64,000 nucleotides of DNA from an uncultured Bacilli bacterium (GTDB taxonomy: Bacteria; Bacillota_I; Bacilli_A; RF39; UBA660): positions 652 through 64,651 of the forward strand of contig CALVJQ010000002.1 of NCBI GenBank assembly GCA_944332265.1, read 5' to 3'. Positions 6,772 to 15,644 of the stretch are shown in pieces (position 1 is the stretch's first letter; each line of letters starts with the position of its first letter). The position numbers were made by a program, and so were the translations under genes. The notes under the pieces were generated by a model. The model saw only the letters and a program-made list of their open reading frames with translations. It was not told the DNA's origin and did no database searches.

Positions 6772-8736
6772 ATGAAAAAGAAAAAAATATTATTGGGACT
6801 GGGAGTTTTAATTATTGTAATACTCTTAGTAATTGGAGGATTTTGGATAGGAAAAAATAAGTTAAATAAAGAAGAAGTTAATCAAGTTAAAAGTATGATT
6901 GCTTTACAAAGTGAAAAAGAAAAGGATTTTAAAATTGATGGTTATACAATTGATGAACCTAATGTTATTTTGAATCCTTATGGCAATTCGCCATTAACAG
7001 CATTAATAATGTTTGAAACTGATAAGGAGGTTGAAGTAACAGTTACTATAAAAGGTGATGATAAATTATCAACTTTTACACATACTTTTGCTAAAGAAAA
7101 AGAGCATTATTTACCTATTTATGGTTTATATGCTGATAGAAAAAATAAAGTTATAATTGAATATGAAGATGATAATCAAGAAATTAAAAAGGAAATAGAA
7201 ATTAAAACTGATAAATTACCTTCTAATATGGCTTTGCCAACGGAAGTAGATGCTAAAAAAAGTAAATTAACTAACGAATTATATTTCTTTACACCATCTA
7301 GTAGTGGGTATACTATGGCATATGATGTAAATGGTGATGTTAGATGGTATTTTACTAATTATGCATTATGGAAAATAGACAGATTAGAAAATGGAAATCT
7401 TTTAGTTAGTACGGAAAGATTAGTTAATAGTCCATATTATATGACAGGATTATATGAAATGGATTTATTAGGTAAGATATATAATGAATATAGTCTTCCT
7501 GGGGGATATCACCATGATTATTATGAAATGGAAAATGGAAATCTTTTAGTTGCAAGTGATGACTTTAATAACGAAAGTGGTACTGTAGAAGATTATATTG
7601 TTGAATTAGATAGGAAAACTGGAGAAATAGTAAAAACATTTGATTTAAAAGATGTTTTAAAGATGACAGATGGTAAAAGTGAAAACTGGTCTGATTATGA
7701 TTGGTTTCATAATAATTCAGTTTGGTATGATAAAAAAACTAATTCTATTACCTTGTCAGGTCGTCATCAAGATGCTGTTATTAATTTAGACTATGATACA
7801 GGAAAATTAAATTGGATTATTGGTGATTCAACTAATTGGAGTGAAGAATATCAAAAGTATTTCTTTACACCTGTTGGCGACGACTTTGAATGGCAATGGA
7901 GTCAACATGCGGCAATGATTACTCCAGAAGGATATGTATTTATCTTAGATAACGGTAATAATAAATCAAAAATTAAAGAAGAATATGTTGATGCTTCTAA
8001 TAGTTATACTAGAGGAGTTATGTATAAGATAGATACTGATAAAATGACAATTGAACAAGTATGGGAATATGGTAAAGAAAGAGGAAGTGAATTTTATTCT
8101 CCATACATATCTGATGTTGATTATTTAGATAAGGATCATTATATAGTTCATTCTGGTGGTATAGTATTTGTAGATGGTAAAAATTCTAATCAACCTGCGG
8201 GATTTAGTAAAGGTGCTGAATTATTATCTGATACAGTAGAAATTATTGATGATGAAGTAGTTTTTGAAATAAAATTACCAACAAATAATTATCGTGTTGA
8301 AAAAATGAGTTTATATACTGATGATAATAATTTTAAATTGGGTGAAGCAAACAGAATTGGTTCACTTGGTGAAACAAAGAAAGATGATAAAAAATTAACA
8401 TTTAATTTATTTACTAAAAAAATCGATGATACTTATAAAAAACATGATATTAGTATTGATAAAGAGGTTGATCGTTTAGTAGTTAAAGGTCAATTTAAAA
8501 GAACTGATTCAGTTAATATTGTATTATATAAAGGAATAACTGCTAATTATTATAACCTACGAGTAAGTAAAAAACCATATACTGCTTTATGTGTTGATAT
8601 TTTTACAGAAGAAGAGACTAAAAATGGAATTGTTGTTACTAAGTATATTAATAATGATGGTTTAAAAGGTAAGTATGCTGTATATATTGAAATAAATGGA
8701 ACATTATATAATACTAATGAATATGTTGAATTTTAA
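6772..8736 (+). CDS. signal-anchored beta-propeller protein, arylsulfotransferase (ASST)-like
   Basis: 654 aa with an N-terminal TM helix; repeated 'ENGNLLV' and 'GGYHHDYY' and Trp-rich propeller-like repeats recalled from the ASST family. Not verified by search. Confidence 0.45.
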   Translation: MKKKKILLGLGVLIIVILLVIGGFWIGKNKLNKEEVNQVKSMIALQSEKEKDFKIDGYTIDEPNVILNPYGNSPLTALIMFETDKEVEVTVTIKGDDKLSTFTHTFAKEKEHYLPIYGLYADRKNKVIIEYEDDNQEIKKEIEIKTDKLPSNMALPTEVDAKKSKLTNELYFFTPSSSGYTMAYDVNGDVRWYFTNYALWKIDRLENGNLLVSTERLVNSPYYMTGLYEMDLLGKIYNEYSLPGGYHHDYYEMENGNLLVASDDFNNESGTVEDYIVELDRKTGEIVKTFDLKDVLKMTDGKSENWSDYDWFHNNSVWYDKKTNSITLSGRHQDAVINLDYDTGKLNWIIGDSTNWSEEYQKYFFTPVGDDFEWQWSQHAAMITPEGYVFILDNGNNKSKIKEEYVDASNSYTRGVMYKIDTDKMTIEQVWEYGKERGSEFYSPYISDVDYLDKDHYIVHSGGIVFVDGKNSNQPAGFSKGAELLSDTVEIIDDEVVFEIKLPTNNYRVEKMSLYTDDNNFKLGEANRIGSLGETKKDDKKLTFNLFTKKIDDTYKKHDISIDKEVDRLVVKGQFKRTDSVNIVLYKGITANYYNLRVSKKPYTALCVDIFTEEETKNGIVVTKYINNDGLKGKYAVYIEINGTLYNTNEYVEF

Positions 8737-8967: not shown

Positions 8968-9993
8968 GTGAAATGTGTTTCCTTAAAAGGTAAAAAGAAA
9001 CTAGAAGTTTCGACTATTAATAATGCAAAGTCTAAAGATGGTAGTGTTGTTATTGATATTAAGAAAACAGGAATTTGTGGTTCTGATATTCATTATTGGG
9101 ATATGGGAATGCCTGATGGATTAGTAATGGGACATGAGTTTTGTGGAGTAGTAACTGACCCTGGGTCACGTAAAGATTTAAAAATTGGAGATCGTGTAAC
9201 AGGTTTACCTATTTCGCCTTGTGGAAAGTGTCCTGCTTGCTTAAGTGGAAATCCACAATATTGTCCTGATACTTGGACATATGCTGTTGGGTTGTCTTTA
9301 ACTAACCCTGGTGGTTATGCTGAGGCAACTGCCGTAAGACCCGATTTAGTTATTAAGGTTCCTAGTAATATTACTGATTCTGAAGTTGCGATGGTAGAAC
9401 CAACTGCTGTTGGGTTGCATGCTGTTAATTTAGCTGATATTAAAATAGGTTCTAAAGTTTTAGTTATTGGAGCGGGAATTATAGGCGATATATGTGCTAT
9501 GTTTGCTAAAATGAATGGAGCTTCTTATGTAGCTATATCTGAAACTAATGAAAAACGTGGTAAAAAAGCAGTTACATTAAAGTGTGCTGATGAATACTTT
9601 TATGCTCATGATGAAAAGTTTATGGAAAATGTTAGAAGAGAGTGTCCTTTTGGATATGATGTAGTATTTGATTGTTCAGGGAATAGTGCAGCTGTTTCAA
9701 CTGCCCTTGCTTGTGTTAAACCAAATGGAACTGTAGTTATGGTTGGAGTTTCAATGGAAAGTATTACTATTCCTTCTGTTTTATTAGTTATGCATGAATT
9801 AAAAGTATATGGAGCTATTGGATATACATATGATGAATTTAAAGAATGTATTGATTTAATGTCTACACGTAAAATTGATATGTTGAAATTTGTTGATGAT
9901 ATAGTTGGATTAGATGGCGTACAAAATGCTTTTGAGAGATTGACTTCCGGCGAAGATAATGCTATTAAAATTTTAATTGACCCAAATAAATAA
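8968..9993 (+). CDS. Zn-dependent alcohol/polyol dehydrogenase (MDR family, sorbitol/threonine dehydrogenase-like)
   Basis: 'GICGSDIHYW' and 'GHEFCGVV' catalytic-zinc motifs, a structural-zinc Cys cluster (CGKCPACLSGNPQYC) and a 'GAGIIG' Rossmann motif. GTG 8968 sits 10 nt after AGGAG, which is better than the track's TTG 8959. Confidence 0.8.
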   Translation: MKCVSLKGKKKLEVSTINNAKSKDGSVVIDIKKTGICGSDIHYWDMGMPDGLVMGHEFCGVVTDPGSRKDLKIGDRVTGLPISPCGKCPACLSGNPQYCPDTWTYAVGLSLTNPGGYAEATAVRPDLVIKVPSNITDSEVAMVEPTAVGLHAVNLADIKIGSKVLVIGAGIIGDICAMFAKMNGASYVAISETNEKRGKKAVTLKCADEYFYAHDEKFMENVRRECPFGYDVVFDCSGNSAAVSTALACVKPNGTVVMVGVSMESITIPSVLLVMHELKVYGAIGYTYDEFKECIDLMSTRKIDMLKFVDDIVGLDGVQNAFERLTSGEDNAIKILIDPNK

Positions 9994-9996
9994 AAA

Positions 9997-10053
9997 CCAC
10001 ATAGTGGTTTTTTTATTTTAAAAAAAAGAGATTACCTAGTTAAAAGTAATCTT
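9997..10053. terminator. terminators: ACCAC-ATA-GTGGT hairpin plus T-run (plus strand, for adh) and AGATTAC/GTAATCT hairpin followed by T8 on the minus strand (for tmRNA)
   Basis: Both hairpins read in the sequence. Confidence 0.45.
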
Positions 10054-10545: not shown

Positions 10546-10677
10546 TTTCTTAATTAAATATTTTATATTTTGATTGGCATTTATCCTATATATAAAGATA
10601 AGGTTGACTTTTTAAGTGTTATATGGTAGTGTAAGTGACGAAAAGGAGAAAATGTTTTATTAAGGGGGGTAATACTA

Positions 10678-12020: not shown

Positions 12021-12043
12021 ATATAGGTAGGAGGTTATAAGTT

Positions 12044-14227
12044 ATGTACGATAATGATAATGTTACTTACAAAGTTGGAATTAACTGGAAAGATATTATA
12101 ATTAAAGTAATAATTTTAGCTTTATTTATCTTACTTCTTTTATGGCTATTTCCTAAGGCTAATTTAGATGTTTTCTATGATTCAATTTATTCAGAAAACA
12201 TTAAAACAATGAAAGATGCTGCAAGAAACTATTATACTGTTGATAGACTTCCAGCAAATGTTGGCGATCAAACATCAATGACATTAAAAGAAATGATTGA
12301 TAATAAAATGTTAATCAGATTTACCGATAAAGATGGTCAAACTTGTGATGAGACTACTAGTAAAGTTGAAGTTACAAAGATTGCTGATGATGAATATACT
12401 TTAAAAGTACAATTAAATTGTGGTGAACAACAAGATTATATATTAGAAACTATTGGTTGTACTACTGTATGTTCTAATGGTACTTGTACAACTGTAATCA
12501 ATAATGGTGATAATTCTAGTACTATTGCTAACAACAATAATAATCAATCTAATAATACAACTGGTATATCTAATGATGATTCAGTAACTGAAAGAGTTGA
12601 TTCTGATGGTACTGAAACTGGTAGTGTTAAAGATGATATTTATACAGTAAAAACGATACTATATCAACATAAAAAAGCAATTGTAACTACGAAGACTGTT
12701 TATACTTGCCCTAGTGGTTACACAAAGAATGGTACTAAATGTATTAAGAAAACTACTGGTGCTACAATCGATGCTACTCCTGTATACAATCCTGATCAAG
12801 TTATAACTACGGACGCTAAATATAATTATACTGGCGACTATACTGTTAGTGCTGATCCAATTAAGAAAGAAGTTGGAACCGATTATACTTGTCCTTCTGG
12901 TTATACATTAAATGGAGCATATTGTATAAAATATACTAACGCAACAGAACATAAAGGTGAAACTACTTATACTTGTCCTTCTGGTTATACTAAGAATGGT
13001 ACAAAATGTGTTAAGACTTATGATGCTACAAAGAAAACTGGCAGTGGATCTTATAGTTGTCCTAGTGGTGGAACTTTAAGTGGTTCTAAGTGTACAATAA
13101 CTTCTAATGCTTCTGCTAGTACAAGTTATACTTGTCCTTCTGGTTATACAAAAAATGGAACAAGTTGTTATAAAGTATATACGGCATCTGGAAGTACTAC
13201 TTATAGTTGTCCTTCTGGTTATACAAGAAGTGGTTCTACTTGTTCTAAAACTACTTCAGTAGCAGCTACTGCTCATACTTCATATGGTGGATGGGTAAAT
13301 CAAGGAACTAAGTATTATACTTCATCTTCTAAAGCATATACTGGTACTACTTCTAAATTAGTATTACAAGGTGCTATTTCTGGAGCTACTTGTGGTTCTC
13401 CTTGTGGAAATAAAGGTATATGGTATAAATATATTTACTATACTAGAAGTCAATCTACTTCATATACTTGTCCTTCTGGTTATTCAAGAAGTGGTTCTAC
13501 ATGTTATAAGACAACAACTATTTCTGCAACTGCTAATACTAAATATAGTTGTCCTAGTGGAGGATCTTTAAGTGGAAATAAATGTACAATAACTTCTAGT
13601 GCTACTGCTAATACTACTTATAGTTGTCCTTCTGGATATTCAAAGAATGGTACTAAATGTACTAAAACATATAATGCAACTTATAATTCTGGTTCAACAA
13701 GTTATACTTGTCCTAATGGTGGAACTTTATCTGGTACGAAATGTACAATAACTAAGGATGCTACTGCTTCAACTGGTCAAACAACATATACTTGTCCTTC
13801 TGGATATACATATAATTCAAGTACTAAGAAATGTGAAATGAAAATAAGTGCTACTGCAACTAAGAAATATAGTTATAGTTGCCCTACTGGATATACAGCT
13901 TCTGGTGAAGGAGAAAATATGAAATGTACTAAAACTGTTAAAGGAGAAAACAAATACTATTGTGAAGATAGTGATGCAGTTTTAAATGGTACTAAGTGTA
14001 TTAAAACTGTTAAGGGTGATATTAAGAATTATACTTGTCCTAATGGCTATACATTAAGTGGAGAGAAATGTATAAAACAAACAACTGTTACTATAGATGC
14101 TACTGTAAGTACTAAGAAATCTACATCTTATCAATATAAATGGAGTGAGAAATCTTATTTAGAAGGTTGGACATTTACTGGTAAGACTAAGACTTCAACA
14201 AAAACTTATACAGCTGGTCAAAGATAA
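12044..14227 (+). CDS. signal-anchored surface protein with about 14 tandem Cys-pair repeats ([ST]Y[ST]CP[SN]G[YG][ST]x[NS]G[ST]xC[TIVY]K)
   Basis: Strong SD (GGTAGGAGG) 24 nt after the upstream stop, an N-terminal TM helix, and a repeat unit of 24-30 aa with exactly two Cys; Thr/Ser/Lys-rich. Confidence 0.6.
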   Translation: MYDNDNVTYKVGINWKDIIIKVIILALFILLLLWLFPKANLDVFYDSIYSENIKTMKDAARNYYTVDRLPANVGDQTSMTLKEMIDNKMLIRFTDKDGQTCDETTSKVEVTKIADDEYTLKVQLNCGEQQDYILETIGCTTVCSNGTCTTVINNGDNSSTIANNNNNQSNNTTGISNDDSVTERVDSDGTETGSVKDDIYTVKTILYQHKKAIVTTKTVYTCPSGYTKNGTKCIKKTTGATIDATPVYNPDQVITTDAKYNYTGDYTVSADPIKKEVGTDYTCPSGYTLNGAYCIKYTNATEHKGETTYTCPSGYTKNGTKCVKTYDATKKTGSGSYSCPSGGTLSGSKCTITSNASASTSYTCPSGYTKNGTSCYKVYTASGSTTYSCPSGYTRSGSTCSKTTSVAATAHTSYGGWVNQGTKYYTSSSKAYTGTTSKLVLQGAISGATCGSPCGNKGIWYKYIYYTRSQSTSYTCPSGYSRSGSTCYKTTTISATANTKYSCPSGGSLSGNKCTITSSATANTTYSCPSGYSKNGTKCTKTYNATYNSGSTSYTCPNGGTLSGTKCTITKDATASTGQTTYTCPSGYTYNSSTKKCEMKISATATKKYSYSCPTGYTASGEGENMKCTKTVKGENKYYCEDSDAVLNGTKCIKTVKGDIKNYTCPNGYTLSGEKCIKQTTVTIDATVSTKKSTSYQYKWSEKSYLEGWTFTGKTKTSTKTYTAGQR
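12690..14080 (+). repeat. imperfect tandem coding repeats, about 14 units of 72-90 bp, two alternating subtypes
   Basis: Recurrent 'ACTTGTCCTTCTGGTTATAC' and 'AGTTGTCCTAGTGGTGGAAC' DNA cores, seen directly in the sequence. Confidence 0.6.
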
Positions 14228-14235
14228 GAAAAAAG

Positions 14236-14262
14236 TTATTATGAAATTCATAATAACTTTTT
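14236..14262. terminator. bidirectional terminator hairpin AGTTATTATGA-AAT-TCATAATAACT plus T-run
   Basis: Perfect 11-bp stem between the two convergent genes. Confidence 0.5.
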
Positions 14263-15644
14263 TAATTGAATAAATATAAATTATTATCGATTAAGATTAA
14301 TTTATCTTTTTTATATGTTTCAAGGAATATATATTTTATATTATTTTGATTATCTATAATATAACCTGTTTTTTCGACTGTAGGAGAGTTTTCTATTATA
14401 TTAAAGGATTTTATTGTATTTGATATAAATTCTTCTGTATCAAGCTCTTTTTCGTTAATATTAGTAATATATGTTATAGTATCTGTTTGATATTCGTTAT
14501 AACCAATTAAAAGGATAGTATATATATCATTGTTTTGGATAACAATAAAATTTAAGATTGTTTTATTATAGAACTCTTGTTTTTCATTTGTTTTTAAATT
14601 AGTTATTGAGAAGATATTATCTTCTAGTTTTAATTCATATTGATTATTAGAATTATCTAATTGATATTCAGTATAAACTGGATAAGTTAATTCATTATAA
14701 GATATTTCTTTTAAATCATAATTATAGCATATTTCAGGATTATCATATTCTGGTAAATAACCTATAGAAAAATATAAAACAATAATAATAAAGATTAAAC
14801 GAGATTTATTTTTCTCTGATTTTTCTATTTCTTCAGCTGTATATTTAATAGAAACTAAGTCTTTTATTTTATCTTTTCTGAGAAGATAAAGACCTATTAG
14901 AATATAAATTATAGACATAATTATGGATATTAAAAGACTTGATATTAAATATGTTTTGGTAATATTTCCCTCTGTACAATCTTTAATAGTATCAATAAGG
15001 GATATATAAATAGCAAAATCCCAAAAGCCATGAATGAAAGCATTAGCCCAGATATTTTTAGTACGATAGTAAATACATCCTAAAAGGAAACCGGCACCAA
15101 TAGCTTGAATAATTTGAGCTATTGTTTCAATTATACCTTGGCCACCAATCCAAATATTGGATATATGCATTCCTCCAAAGATTATAGATGAACATAAAAT
15201 AGAGATAATTACTTGTTTTTGAGTATTGCTATATTTTTCAATAAATTCATTTTGAATCCAACCACGACATAGTATTTCTTCCATTACACCAATAGAAAGA
15301 CAATATAGTAATAAAGATAGTACATCGATTATTAAAGGATTAGTTTTAAGACTCAATAAATTAACTAGTAAACTTAGAAAAGATAAACCAATCATAAAAC
15401 CACCAATTAATAATGATTTGCTAAAGTTTTCTTTCTTTTCTTTAAATATATATGTATTTTTAAATATTATAATAACAATTACAGCTAAGAGGATACAACT
15501 CATTTCAACGATAAACTCTCTACCATAACGACCATATAAAATTGATCTTGATATTATTGGGTATAATTGGTTACTAATTATTTCATATATAAAAAAGAAT
15601 AATAATAATTTTAAAAATAGTAAGACTATTTTAAGTTTTTTCAT
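14262..15644 (-). CDS. CPBP-family (CAAX/Abi) intramembrane metalloprotease with extra C-terminal extracytoplasmic domain
   Basis: Motifs 'EEILCRGW' (EExxxR), 'FGGMHISN' (FxxxH) and 'HGFWDF' (HxxxN/D) in successive TM helices; 460 aa; SD GAGGTG. Confidence 0.7.
   Translation of the reverse strand: MKKLKIVLLFLKLLLFFFIYEIISNQLYPIISRSILYGRYGREFIVEMSCILLAVIVIIIFKNTYIFKEKKENFSKSLLIGGFMIGLSFLSLLVNLLSLKTNPLIIDVLSLLLYCLSIGVMEEILCRGWIQNEFIEKYSNTQKQVIISILCSSIIFGGMHISNIWIGGQGIIETIAQIIQAIGAGFLLGCIYYRTKNIWANAFIHGFWDFAIYISLIDTIKDCTEGNITKTYLISSLLISIIMSIIYILIGLYLLRKDKIKDLVSIKYTAEEIEKSEKNKSRLIFIIIVLYFSIGYLPEYDNPEICYNYDLKEISYNELTYPVYTEYQLDNSNNQYELKLEDNIFSITNLKTNEKQEFYNKTILNFIVIQNNDIYTILLIGYNEYQTDTITYITNINEKELDTEEFISNTIKSFNIIENSPTVEKTGYIIDNQNNIKYIFLETYKKDKLILIDNNLYLFN

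Follow-up and report, generated by a model that had tools for sequence, protein, structure and literature searches.

The stretch of DNA under study, called the window hereafter, comprises 64,000 nucleotides of contig CALVJQ010000002.1 (GenBank assembly GCA_944332265.1) from an uncultured Bacilli bacterium. It is chromosomal, carrying pheST, a cluster of ribosomal protein genes with rpoA, and other housekeeping genes. The gene of interest is an open reading frame on the forward strand (12044..14227), which starts with ATG and codes for a cysteine-rich protein of 727 residues, referred to here as the stalk protein. The exact protein is public, and HIS18346.1 from Candidatus Coprovivens excrementavium falls into its 90%-identity cluster. 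This genus corresponds to GTDB UBA11963 in the family CAG-1000 of the order RF39 (PMC8035907). No member of RF39 has been cultured, and a peptidoglycan wall is predicted to be retained in most species of the order (PMC10868615). Only 23 nt before the stalk gene ends the gene of a 447-residue membrane protein with a J-like N-terminal domain, the partner, and no terminator-like site was found in this gap by the terminator scan. The features of the locus are collected in Table 1.

The stalk protein contains 35 cysteines, the commonest count across its family, and 28 of them form 14 pairs with a spacing of 11-15 residues, each pair preceded by Y-x. The first seven pairs are 222/233, 283/294, 311/322, 339/350, 364/375, 389/400 and 476/487; the other seven are 503/514, 528/539, 556/567, 584/597, 613/628, 640/652 and 665/676. 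There are 14 occurrences of the motif Y-x-C-[PE]-x-[GS]-x(6-12)-C, as opposed to a mean of 0.017 and a maximum of 2 in 2000 shuffles of residues 206-727. This confirms a first, sequence-only reading of the locus, in which about 14 Cys-pair units had been recognized in this frame behind a single N-terminal transmembrane (TM) anchor. Two details of that reading had to be corrected. Both of the unit subtypes that it distinguished exist, but they do not alternate along the whole array: 'GG' occurs only in units 4, 8 and 10, hence the alternation is local. Likewise, the insert thought to interrupt one unit actually measures ~70 residues (401-469) and lies between units 6 and 7.

The AlphaFold2 (AF2) model of the full-length protein, obtained with 84 sequences, has a mean predicted local distance difference test score (pLDDT) of 72.5 and a predicted template modeling score (pTM) of 0.25. 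The proposed anchor is visible as a hydrophobic stretch (residues 18-36) and as a helix in the model (15-35). An alpha/beta region follows up to residue ~140, then disorder (141-197, pLDDT <50) and, finally, beta strands throughout 199-723. A Foldseek search of PDB with the full-length model gave no match with E < 0.1. The short tail in front of the anchor is conserved: its M1 and W15 do not vary in the ortholog alignment A1, where Y2 is conserved to at least 90%.

The base domain next to the membrane is the best-conserved region of the protein. It consists of a helix (42-63) and four strands, holds the invariant C101 and C126, and reaches a pLDDT of 85 and a pTM of 0.65 when modeled alone. 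No significant structural neighbor of this model was found by Foldseek in PDB and BFVD; a pilin-like fold, which was considered, is hence unsupported. The class III signal peptide of type IV pilins (G|F-T-L-x-E; Pfam N_methyl, PF07963) was not found in the stalk protein either, and G12 and the acidic residue at +5 are unconserved among the orthologs. At the end of the base domain, C139, C143 and C148 ('GCTTVCSNGTC', 12458-12487) are absent together in the branch of P0113, P0114 and P0118. The total of 35 cysteines is odd, and one of these three may be unpaired or take part in an intermolecular bond.

The array itself is divided by the insert into arm 1 and arm 2. In arm 1, unit 2 follows unit 1 at a distance of 61 residues, owing to a conserved spacer of 43 residues. 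The insert is beta-rich and carries W417, 'WYKYIYYTRS' and the pair C450/C454 in 'CGSPCG'. The last four units of arm 2 are conserved special forms (..YNSSTKKC, ..SGEGENMKC, CEDSDAVLNGTKC and CPNGYTLSGEKC). Behind them, two C-terminal strands (687-701 and 710-723 in the AF2 model) contain the residues Y696, Y698, W700, S701, G708, W709, T712 and G713, which are invariant in the alignments. The protein ends in 'GKTKTSTKTYTAGQR', with neither LPXTG nor a TM segment, and SLH, CWB, LysM and LPXTG were all missing in Pfam and NCBIfam scans. The S-layer-like array that was initially envisaged thus has no SLH, LPXTG or wall-binding domain in its favor.

In 24 orthologs with identities down to 44%, the units align one-to-one and all 28 hairpin cysteines are invariant, as are C101, C126 and C454. 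Together with the all-beta model after residue 199, this supports the earlier proposal of a membrane-anchored surface protein built on a beta-hairpin scaffold, in which the pairs are predicted to form disulfides. The mean pairwise identity is 0.61 in the base domain, 0.51 in arm 1, 0.43-0.49 in arm 2, 0.49 in the C-terminus, 0.41 in the insert and 0.15 in the linker.

The stalk protein represents a conserved, uncharacterized family of uncultured RF39-type gut Bacilli. A homolog search returned 1361 proteins, nearly all of them unnamed or 'hypothetical', and a relative is encoded in at least 207 stretches when each GTDB species is represented by a single genome. With few exceptions, these stretches come from metagenome-assembled genomes (MAGs) labeled uncultured Bacilli, Tenericutes, 'Mycoplasma sp. 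CAG:956' or Erysipelotrichaceae. With the base domain alone, a word-indexed homolog search gave fragments only. The same TM segment and base domain were encountered in six loci of other Bacilli MAGs, L077-L082 (L077 4980-7223), with an identity of 47-53% (47% for L077, E 3e-47). Instead of hairpins, their stalk is composed of Cys-free, Trp/Tyr-rich repeats ('..W....GY.YTG.T..'), which resemble by eye the C-terminal motif of the stalk protein, and no J-like gene is located directly upstream.

The repeated unit is probably not a new fold: its pattern is that of a cEGF-like hairpin of ~25-28 residues, predicted to be closed by a single disulfide. It shares the pattern 'C-x-x-G-[YF]-x-x-x-G-x-x-C' with cEGF (PF12662), the C5-C6 hairpin of EGF-like domains, and 10 of the 14 units conform to the more general 'C-x-x-G-[YF]-x(n)-C'. 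In contrast to EGF with its six cysteines, the units of the stalk have only two and are arranged head-to-tail with T/S-rich strands. The score of the stalk protein with the Pfam cEGF model (13.9 bits, E 0.05) does not reach the gathering threshold of 26.6. This threshold is passed, on summed weak repeats, by the orthologs P0059 (31.2) and P0098 (39.2) and by a Halieaceae protein (36.5).

Ten di-units of the stalk protein served to build a profile of the unit, and a search of 1.84 billion representatives with it gave 1679 clusters at E ≤ 1e-3, including 182 at E ≤ 1e-30. The longest array found in this way has up to 149 units in a protein of 4088 residues. Among the PDB sequences, the best match of the profile is a 25-residue disulfide hairpin peptide, the insect stress-response peptide-1 (6ee9, 'TCPSGYVRRGTFC', E 0.02), which resembles the unit in isolated form; CCP modules come next. 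Peptides of this type adopt the C-terminal hairpin of EGF. When the whole protein was used to search PDB sequences, all matches were spurious ones to zinc fingers and LAMP, caused by the periodic 'Y-x-C-P'. Zinc binding was rejected, as each unit has two cysteines and no histidine and the homologous arrays are extracellular. The 'cysteine-rich repeats' of PMC7379824 concern an unrelated eukaryotic repeat.

The unit is rare yet widely reused in extracellular proteins, and it is best known, without a name of its own, as the Cys-rich region of TraN. A tblastn search with residues 205-727 matched 55 plasmids. TraN genes of Sphingopyxis and Sphingobium rank highest (36% identity, 90% of the query, E 2e-51), and one of the matched Sphingopyxis traN genes sits in a complete traC-trbI-traW-traU-trbC-traN-traF-traH-traG operon. 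The TraN encoded there (1058 residues) has ~21 units, and its 'YSCPSGYTLSGTTC' and 'YSCPNGGTLNGTNC' are the same two subtypes, GY and GG, as in the stalk protein. The arrays are homologous, with the common pattern 'Y-S-C-P-x-G-(Y/G)-x-L-x-G-x-x-C-x-x-T' and 30-36% identity over ~470 residues. Furthermore, in both proteins the array is interrupted midway by a non-repeat insert, with matching numbers of units on its two sides. Examples of TraN are that of the Sphingopyxis plasmid pDB-1 (WP_306999122.1) and those of pKpQIL, R100-1 and F (PMC9246713). In the published model, TraN has an extended beta domain that reaches out to a distal 'tip', where the chain folds back, and all cysteines are in predicted intramolecular disulfides (PMC9246713). 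The Pfam TraN model spans only the C-terminal 240 residues of TraN and not the hairpin array.

Unlike TraN, the stalk protein possesses an N-terminal TM anchor and a base domain of its own, and it is chromosomal and vertically inherited in a lineage of Gram-positive type. It lacks PF06986, a tra operon, a cleavable signal peptide and an outer membrane. The repeat and the stalk-and-tip plan are known; what is new is the anchor, the lineage, the context and the partner. A match to a well-known domain family, which would have refuted the first reading, was found in part: the repeat builds the stalk of TraN and resembles cEGF, but neither Pfam nor NCBIfam has a model dedicated to the hairpin unit.

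Other proteins combine the hairpin unit with different anchors and effectors (class III signal peptide, kinase, toxin, Ig); they have neither the RF39 base domain nor a J-like partner. Giant Ig-like adhesins of Shewanella plasmids carry it, and an RHS/YD-repeat toxin of Shewanella sairae (L068 141-8189, 2682 residues) has ~20 units before its C-terminal part. In a Halieaceae protein of 1312 residues (L054 4788-8726), ~30 units precede an unrelated C-terminal region. The Ser/Thr kinases P0304 and P0346 consist of a Pkinase domain, a TM segment and the array as ectodomain. Together with P0373, P0384, P0400 and P0412, kinases likewise made with a single TM segment and a hairpin ectodomain, they look like an unannotated class of receptor kinases. 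Arrays are also found in the prepilin-type (N_methyl) proteins P0295 (361 residues), P0347, P0365 and P0406, and P0295 and P0347 do match the N_methyl model. P0295 even shares the domain of the insert and the C-terminal 'YKWS...G(Y/W)..TG' strands with the stalk protein (E 9e-37, residues 378-716). A tblastn search of phages gave no match for the array, nor did PHROGs and PADLOC give one for the stalk protein.

Because homologous arrays lie outside the cell in TraN and in the proteins of kinase-TM-array type, the array of the stalk protein is probably outside as well. Homologous arrays also occur in known extracellular adhesins. This is in agreement with the possible adhesin of the first reading, adhesion or contact by the stalk protein itself being predicted from this kinship.

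The numbers of units on the two sides of the insert vary together. The insert was located with a hidden Markov model in 106 orthologs, and the units before (n1) and after it (n2) were counted. The difference n2-n1 is 2 in 81 of these, distributed over the classes (5,7), (6,8), (7,9), (8,10), (9,11) and (10,12), and n1 and n2 are correlated with r = 0.88-0.91. The observed count on this diagonal was reached in none of 10,000 permutations (p ≤ 1e-4), and the relation also holds after de-replication at 60% identity (20 of 33 representatives). Each class on the diagonal requires one gain per side of the single-copy insert; selection that matches the two sides is therefore the simplest reading. The two units that open the array and the four that close it are conserved, and gains of units occur next to the insert.

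Counted outward from the insert, the unit periods are palindromic (25, 25, 28, 28 vs. 27, 25, 28, 28), and register 0 gives the best agreement of the periods across orthologs. Units 1 and 14 are alike, and 'TIDAT' follows both. The two extra units of arm 2 may have the 43-residue spacer as their counterpart. A complementarity of GG and GY in paired units was also considered: GG-GY is enriched at register 0, but GG-GG is found beside the insert in some orthologs, and this point was not used. In TraN, arrays of differing length have a central insert with near-equal flanks (9/9, 9/9, 12/12, 10/11, 8/9 and 7/8). These numbers come from direct lists of unit spacings; the delimiting of the C-domain with jackhmmer drifted into the repeats. 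From the co-varying unit numbers together with the symmetry of TraN, the stalk would be folded back and two-armed, with the insert as its far tip.

The most probable explanation, with a probability of roughly 0.55, is a bitopic, TraN-like stalk-and-tip surface protein with a folded-back stalk, a ligand-binding tip and an assisting partner. In the envelope of Ca. Coprovivens excrementavium, the stalk protein would have its N-terminus inside and its C-terminus outside the membrane. On the outer side, the alpha/beta base domain would be followed by a flexible N/S/D-rich tether, a rigid stalk of 14 hairpins and the Trp/Tyr-rich C-terminal strands. Each of the cEGF-like beta-hairpins would be closed by one disulfide. 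Six units and the spacer would run outward to the ~70-residue beta domain of the insert, the distal tip; eight units would run back, and the C-terminal strands would close the base. In this way, a stalk that reaches through the cell wall or beyond it could keep the tip at a set distance from the membrane, and the tip may bind a ligand on another surface, either host material or another cell. The J-like membrane protein would be the assembly or anchoring partner, with its outer domain probably beside the base domain.

Several observations weigh against this model. With a pTM of only 0.25, the full-length AF2 model gives no three-dimensional support for the pairing of the arms. A quarter of the orthologs (25 of 106) lie off the diagonal n2-n1 = 2, and the p-value of the permutations is optimistic, the orthologs being phylogenetically related. 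In the prepilin-type P0295, a single unit precedes the tip and seven follow; arm pairing is thus not obligatory for the module. Within the genus, the insert is better conserved than the arms. Only 32 of 83 comparisons show it to diverge more than any other structured region, so that the tip is not consistently the fastest-evolving part, and it has no detectable homology with the insert of TraN. With respect to the disulfides, no open reading frame for a thiol-disulfide oxidoreductase or a thioredoxin-like CxxC protein was found within the 64-kb window, and Firmicutes are said, in work by Daniels et al. from 2010, usually to avoid cysteines in exported proteins. Finally, the members of the family all carry the label 'hypothetical protein'.

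Some of these points also speak for a straight, single-file rod, the foremost of the alternatives but less probable than the folded-back stalk. Such a continuous rod of 14 hairpins would span the wall as a passive spacer or tether, or as the anchor of an outer layer, with no fold-back and no binding tip, and the insert would be an extra domain. The very long arrays found elsewhere, up to those with 149 units, cannot all be two-armed, and the 1+7 arrangement of P0295 and the low global confidence of AF2 point in the same direction. Conservation is highest in the base domain and the C-terminus rather than in the insert. However, a straight rod leaves the joint rise and fall of n1 and n2 unexplained, as well as the symmetry of TraN about its insert and the palindromic unit periods.

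The partner has a strong Shine-Dalgarno sequence (AAGGGGGG) 7 nt 5' of its ATG at 10677, and its database homologs are also 447 residues long. The usual place of the partner homolog is directly upstream of the stalk gene, also in related loci whose other neighbors differ. In more distant relatives, the gene of a second bitopic protein separates the two, and the partner homolog comes two genes ahead of the stalk gene. The partner evolves fast, even more so than the stalk protein, and is confined to the same clade. In its J-like domain, 'YED' replaces HPD, and the score with Pfam DnaJ (25.2 bits) does not reach the cutoff of 27.8. HPD is missing from all but one of the upstream homologs checked; some homologs have a precomputed PF00226 match and the NCBI name 'J domain-containing protein'.

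This gene pair could also be read as a receptor or sensor: a ligand bound at the array or tip would be signaled via the 17-residue tail to the J-like domain of the partner. The same arrays are the ectodomains of the kinases P0304 and P0346, the tail is conserved at M1, W15 and Y2, and the co-transcribed partner has a cytoplasmic J-like domain. Nevertheless, this reading is improbable: neither protein has a recognizable output domain, and the tail is only 17 residues long. A J domain without HPD should not activate Hsp70. Moreover, the partner is fast-evolving and is displaced by another gene in distant relatives.

Variation among strains was followed in 15 variants from the 90% cluster. Their length is 724, 727 or 729 residues, and every indel falls in the N/S-rich linker (residues 168-176). 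The unit count is thus stable within the species, which contradicts the expectation of the sequence-only reading that the DNA repeats would be a hot spot of repeat-number variation among strains. The DNA copies of the units have diverged (60-87% identity), the longest exact direct repeat in the gene is 25 nt, and Tandem Repeats Finder reported nothing on the stalk gene. A phase- or length-variable adhesin or S-layer-like array, in which DNA repeats drive the change of unit number among strains, is therefore largely refuted and very improbable. What speaks for it is the 25-nt repeat, the variation between species (10 to 22 units and 25 to 53 cysteines in 83 full-length orthologs) and a hint of conversion in one ortholog. 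However, 14 units are the commonest number even at 44% identity, and S-layer or wall-anchor domains are missing.

The hint of conversion comes from P0010, an ortholog of the (7,9) class, in which five identical 'CPNGGTLDGSKC' units flank the insert directly on both sides. Their sequences suggest a recent duplication or gene conversion among the tip-proximal units, possibly across the insert. At the level of strains, 16 positions distinguish the allele P0262 from the stalk protein, and 13 of them fall within the 69-residue insert (binomial p = 2e-11). A P0262-like insert allele is also present in P0269, on a divergent 724-residue background, as a strain-level mosaic. This pattern hints at an exchange of alleles that may be confined to the tip.

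Last, a true TraN-type mating-pair stabilization protein of an unrecognized RF39 conjugation system is hardly credible: the array is homologous, a weak match to NCBIfam TraN exists (NF009017, E 1e-6) and the homolog P0078 is labeled TraN by JGI, but this match has 27.7 bits with a cutoff of 796, and PF06986 is missing at E ≤ 1 in a scan that finds it at 246 bits in the TraN-type P0272, so that membership of the family is refuted. No tra, trb or type IV secretion system genes are located nearby, the housekeeping neighborhood differs between species, and the protein is vertically conserved across at least 207 species genomes.

The neighbors of the stalk gene are the J-like membrane protein, a CPBP protease, pheST, ADH, arylsulfotransferase and ribosomal protein genes. 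Downstream, the stalk gene converges with the gene of the CPBP/Rce1-like intramembrane protease, which has a long extra C-terminal part. The perfect hairpin between the two genes has an energy of -14.6 kcal/mol (z = -6.7 vs. shuffles) and was missed by the terminator scan, which requires G+C. The CPBP gene is also beside the stalk gene in another Coprovivens species and not in distant relatives. As a processing partner of the stalk protein it was rejected: it is not adjacent outside the genus, and the stalk protein has no C-terminal sorting signal. The arylsulfotransferase (ASST) upstream has an Ig-like N-terminal domain. The ASST of E. coli is exported and needs a dedicated disulfide system, which is of interest beside a Cys-rich neighbor. 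Four further reading frames on the reverse strand have no Pfam match at E ≤ 1e-5.

Table 1. Features of the stalk locus; coordinates are positions in the window.
Feature	Coordinates	Strand	Remarks
Open reading frame, 384 residues	2116-3270	-	no Pfam match
Open reading frame, 432 residues	4334-5632	-	no Pfam match
Arylsulfotransferase gene	6772-8736	+	Pfam, 340 bits
Terminator-like hairpin after upstream ADH gene	9992-10012		
Partner gene, 447 residues	10677..12020	+	J-like N-terminal domain, one TM helix, ~330-residue C-terminal domain
Shine-Dalgarno GGAGG of stalk gene	12030..12034	+	read in sequence, 9 nt 5' of ATG
Residues 1-17, short conserved N-terminal tail, predicted cytoplasmic	12044..12094	+	ortholog alignment
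Residues 18-36, single TM helix (signal anchor)	12095..12151	+	hydrophobic stretch; AF2 helix 15-35
Residues 37-140, membrane-proximal alpha/beta base domain	12152..12463	+	AF2, conservation
Residues 141-198, Cys cluster (C143, C148), then N/S/D-rich linker	12464..12637	+	low pLDDT, unconserved
Residues 199-400, arm 1: leading strand 'YQHKKA', unit 1, 43-residue beta spacer, units 2-6	12638..13243	+	
Residues 401-469, ~70-residue insert, proposed distal 'tip'	13244..13450	+	between units 6 and 7
Residues 470-680, arm 2: hairpin units 7-14	13451..14083	+	
Residues 681-727 and stop, conserved C-terminal beta strands 'SYQYKWSEKSYLEGWTFTGKTKT'	14084..14227	+	alignments A1, A2
Perfect 16-bp A/T-rich hairpin between convergent stalk and CPBP genes	14229..14263	.	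likely bidirectional terminator
CPBP/Rce1-like intramembrane protease gene, 460 residues	14262-15644	-	Pfam, 72 bits
Open reading frame, 281 residues	19409-20254	-	no Pfam match
Open reading frame, 704 residues	20603-22717	-	no Pfam match

These results also bear on the repeat itself: what is called the 'Cys-rich region' in TraN is built of a mobile unit that can be clearly defined and that recurs in adhesins, toxins, pilins and receptor kinases. A dedicated model of the hairpin unit would annotate ~1,700 protein clusters. The co-variation of n1 and n2 is an argument for a folded-back stalk that is drawn from sequences only and would extend to TraN.

For RF39, a widespread order of the gut, the pair of stalk and partner genes is a concrete candidate for the surface-contact interface. 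In a bolder and still speculative version, these gut bacteria with small genomes would have a chromosomal, vertically inherited, TraN-like docking organelle for cell-to-cell or cell-to-host contact that belongs to the core of the order. A lineage-specific base domain would fix it to the cytoplasmic membrane, a degenerate J-domain membrane protein would be its partner, and exchangeable tip alleles would set its specificity. The stalk protein would then also be among the few exported proteins of anaerobic Firmicutes with many disulfide bonds.

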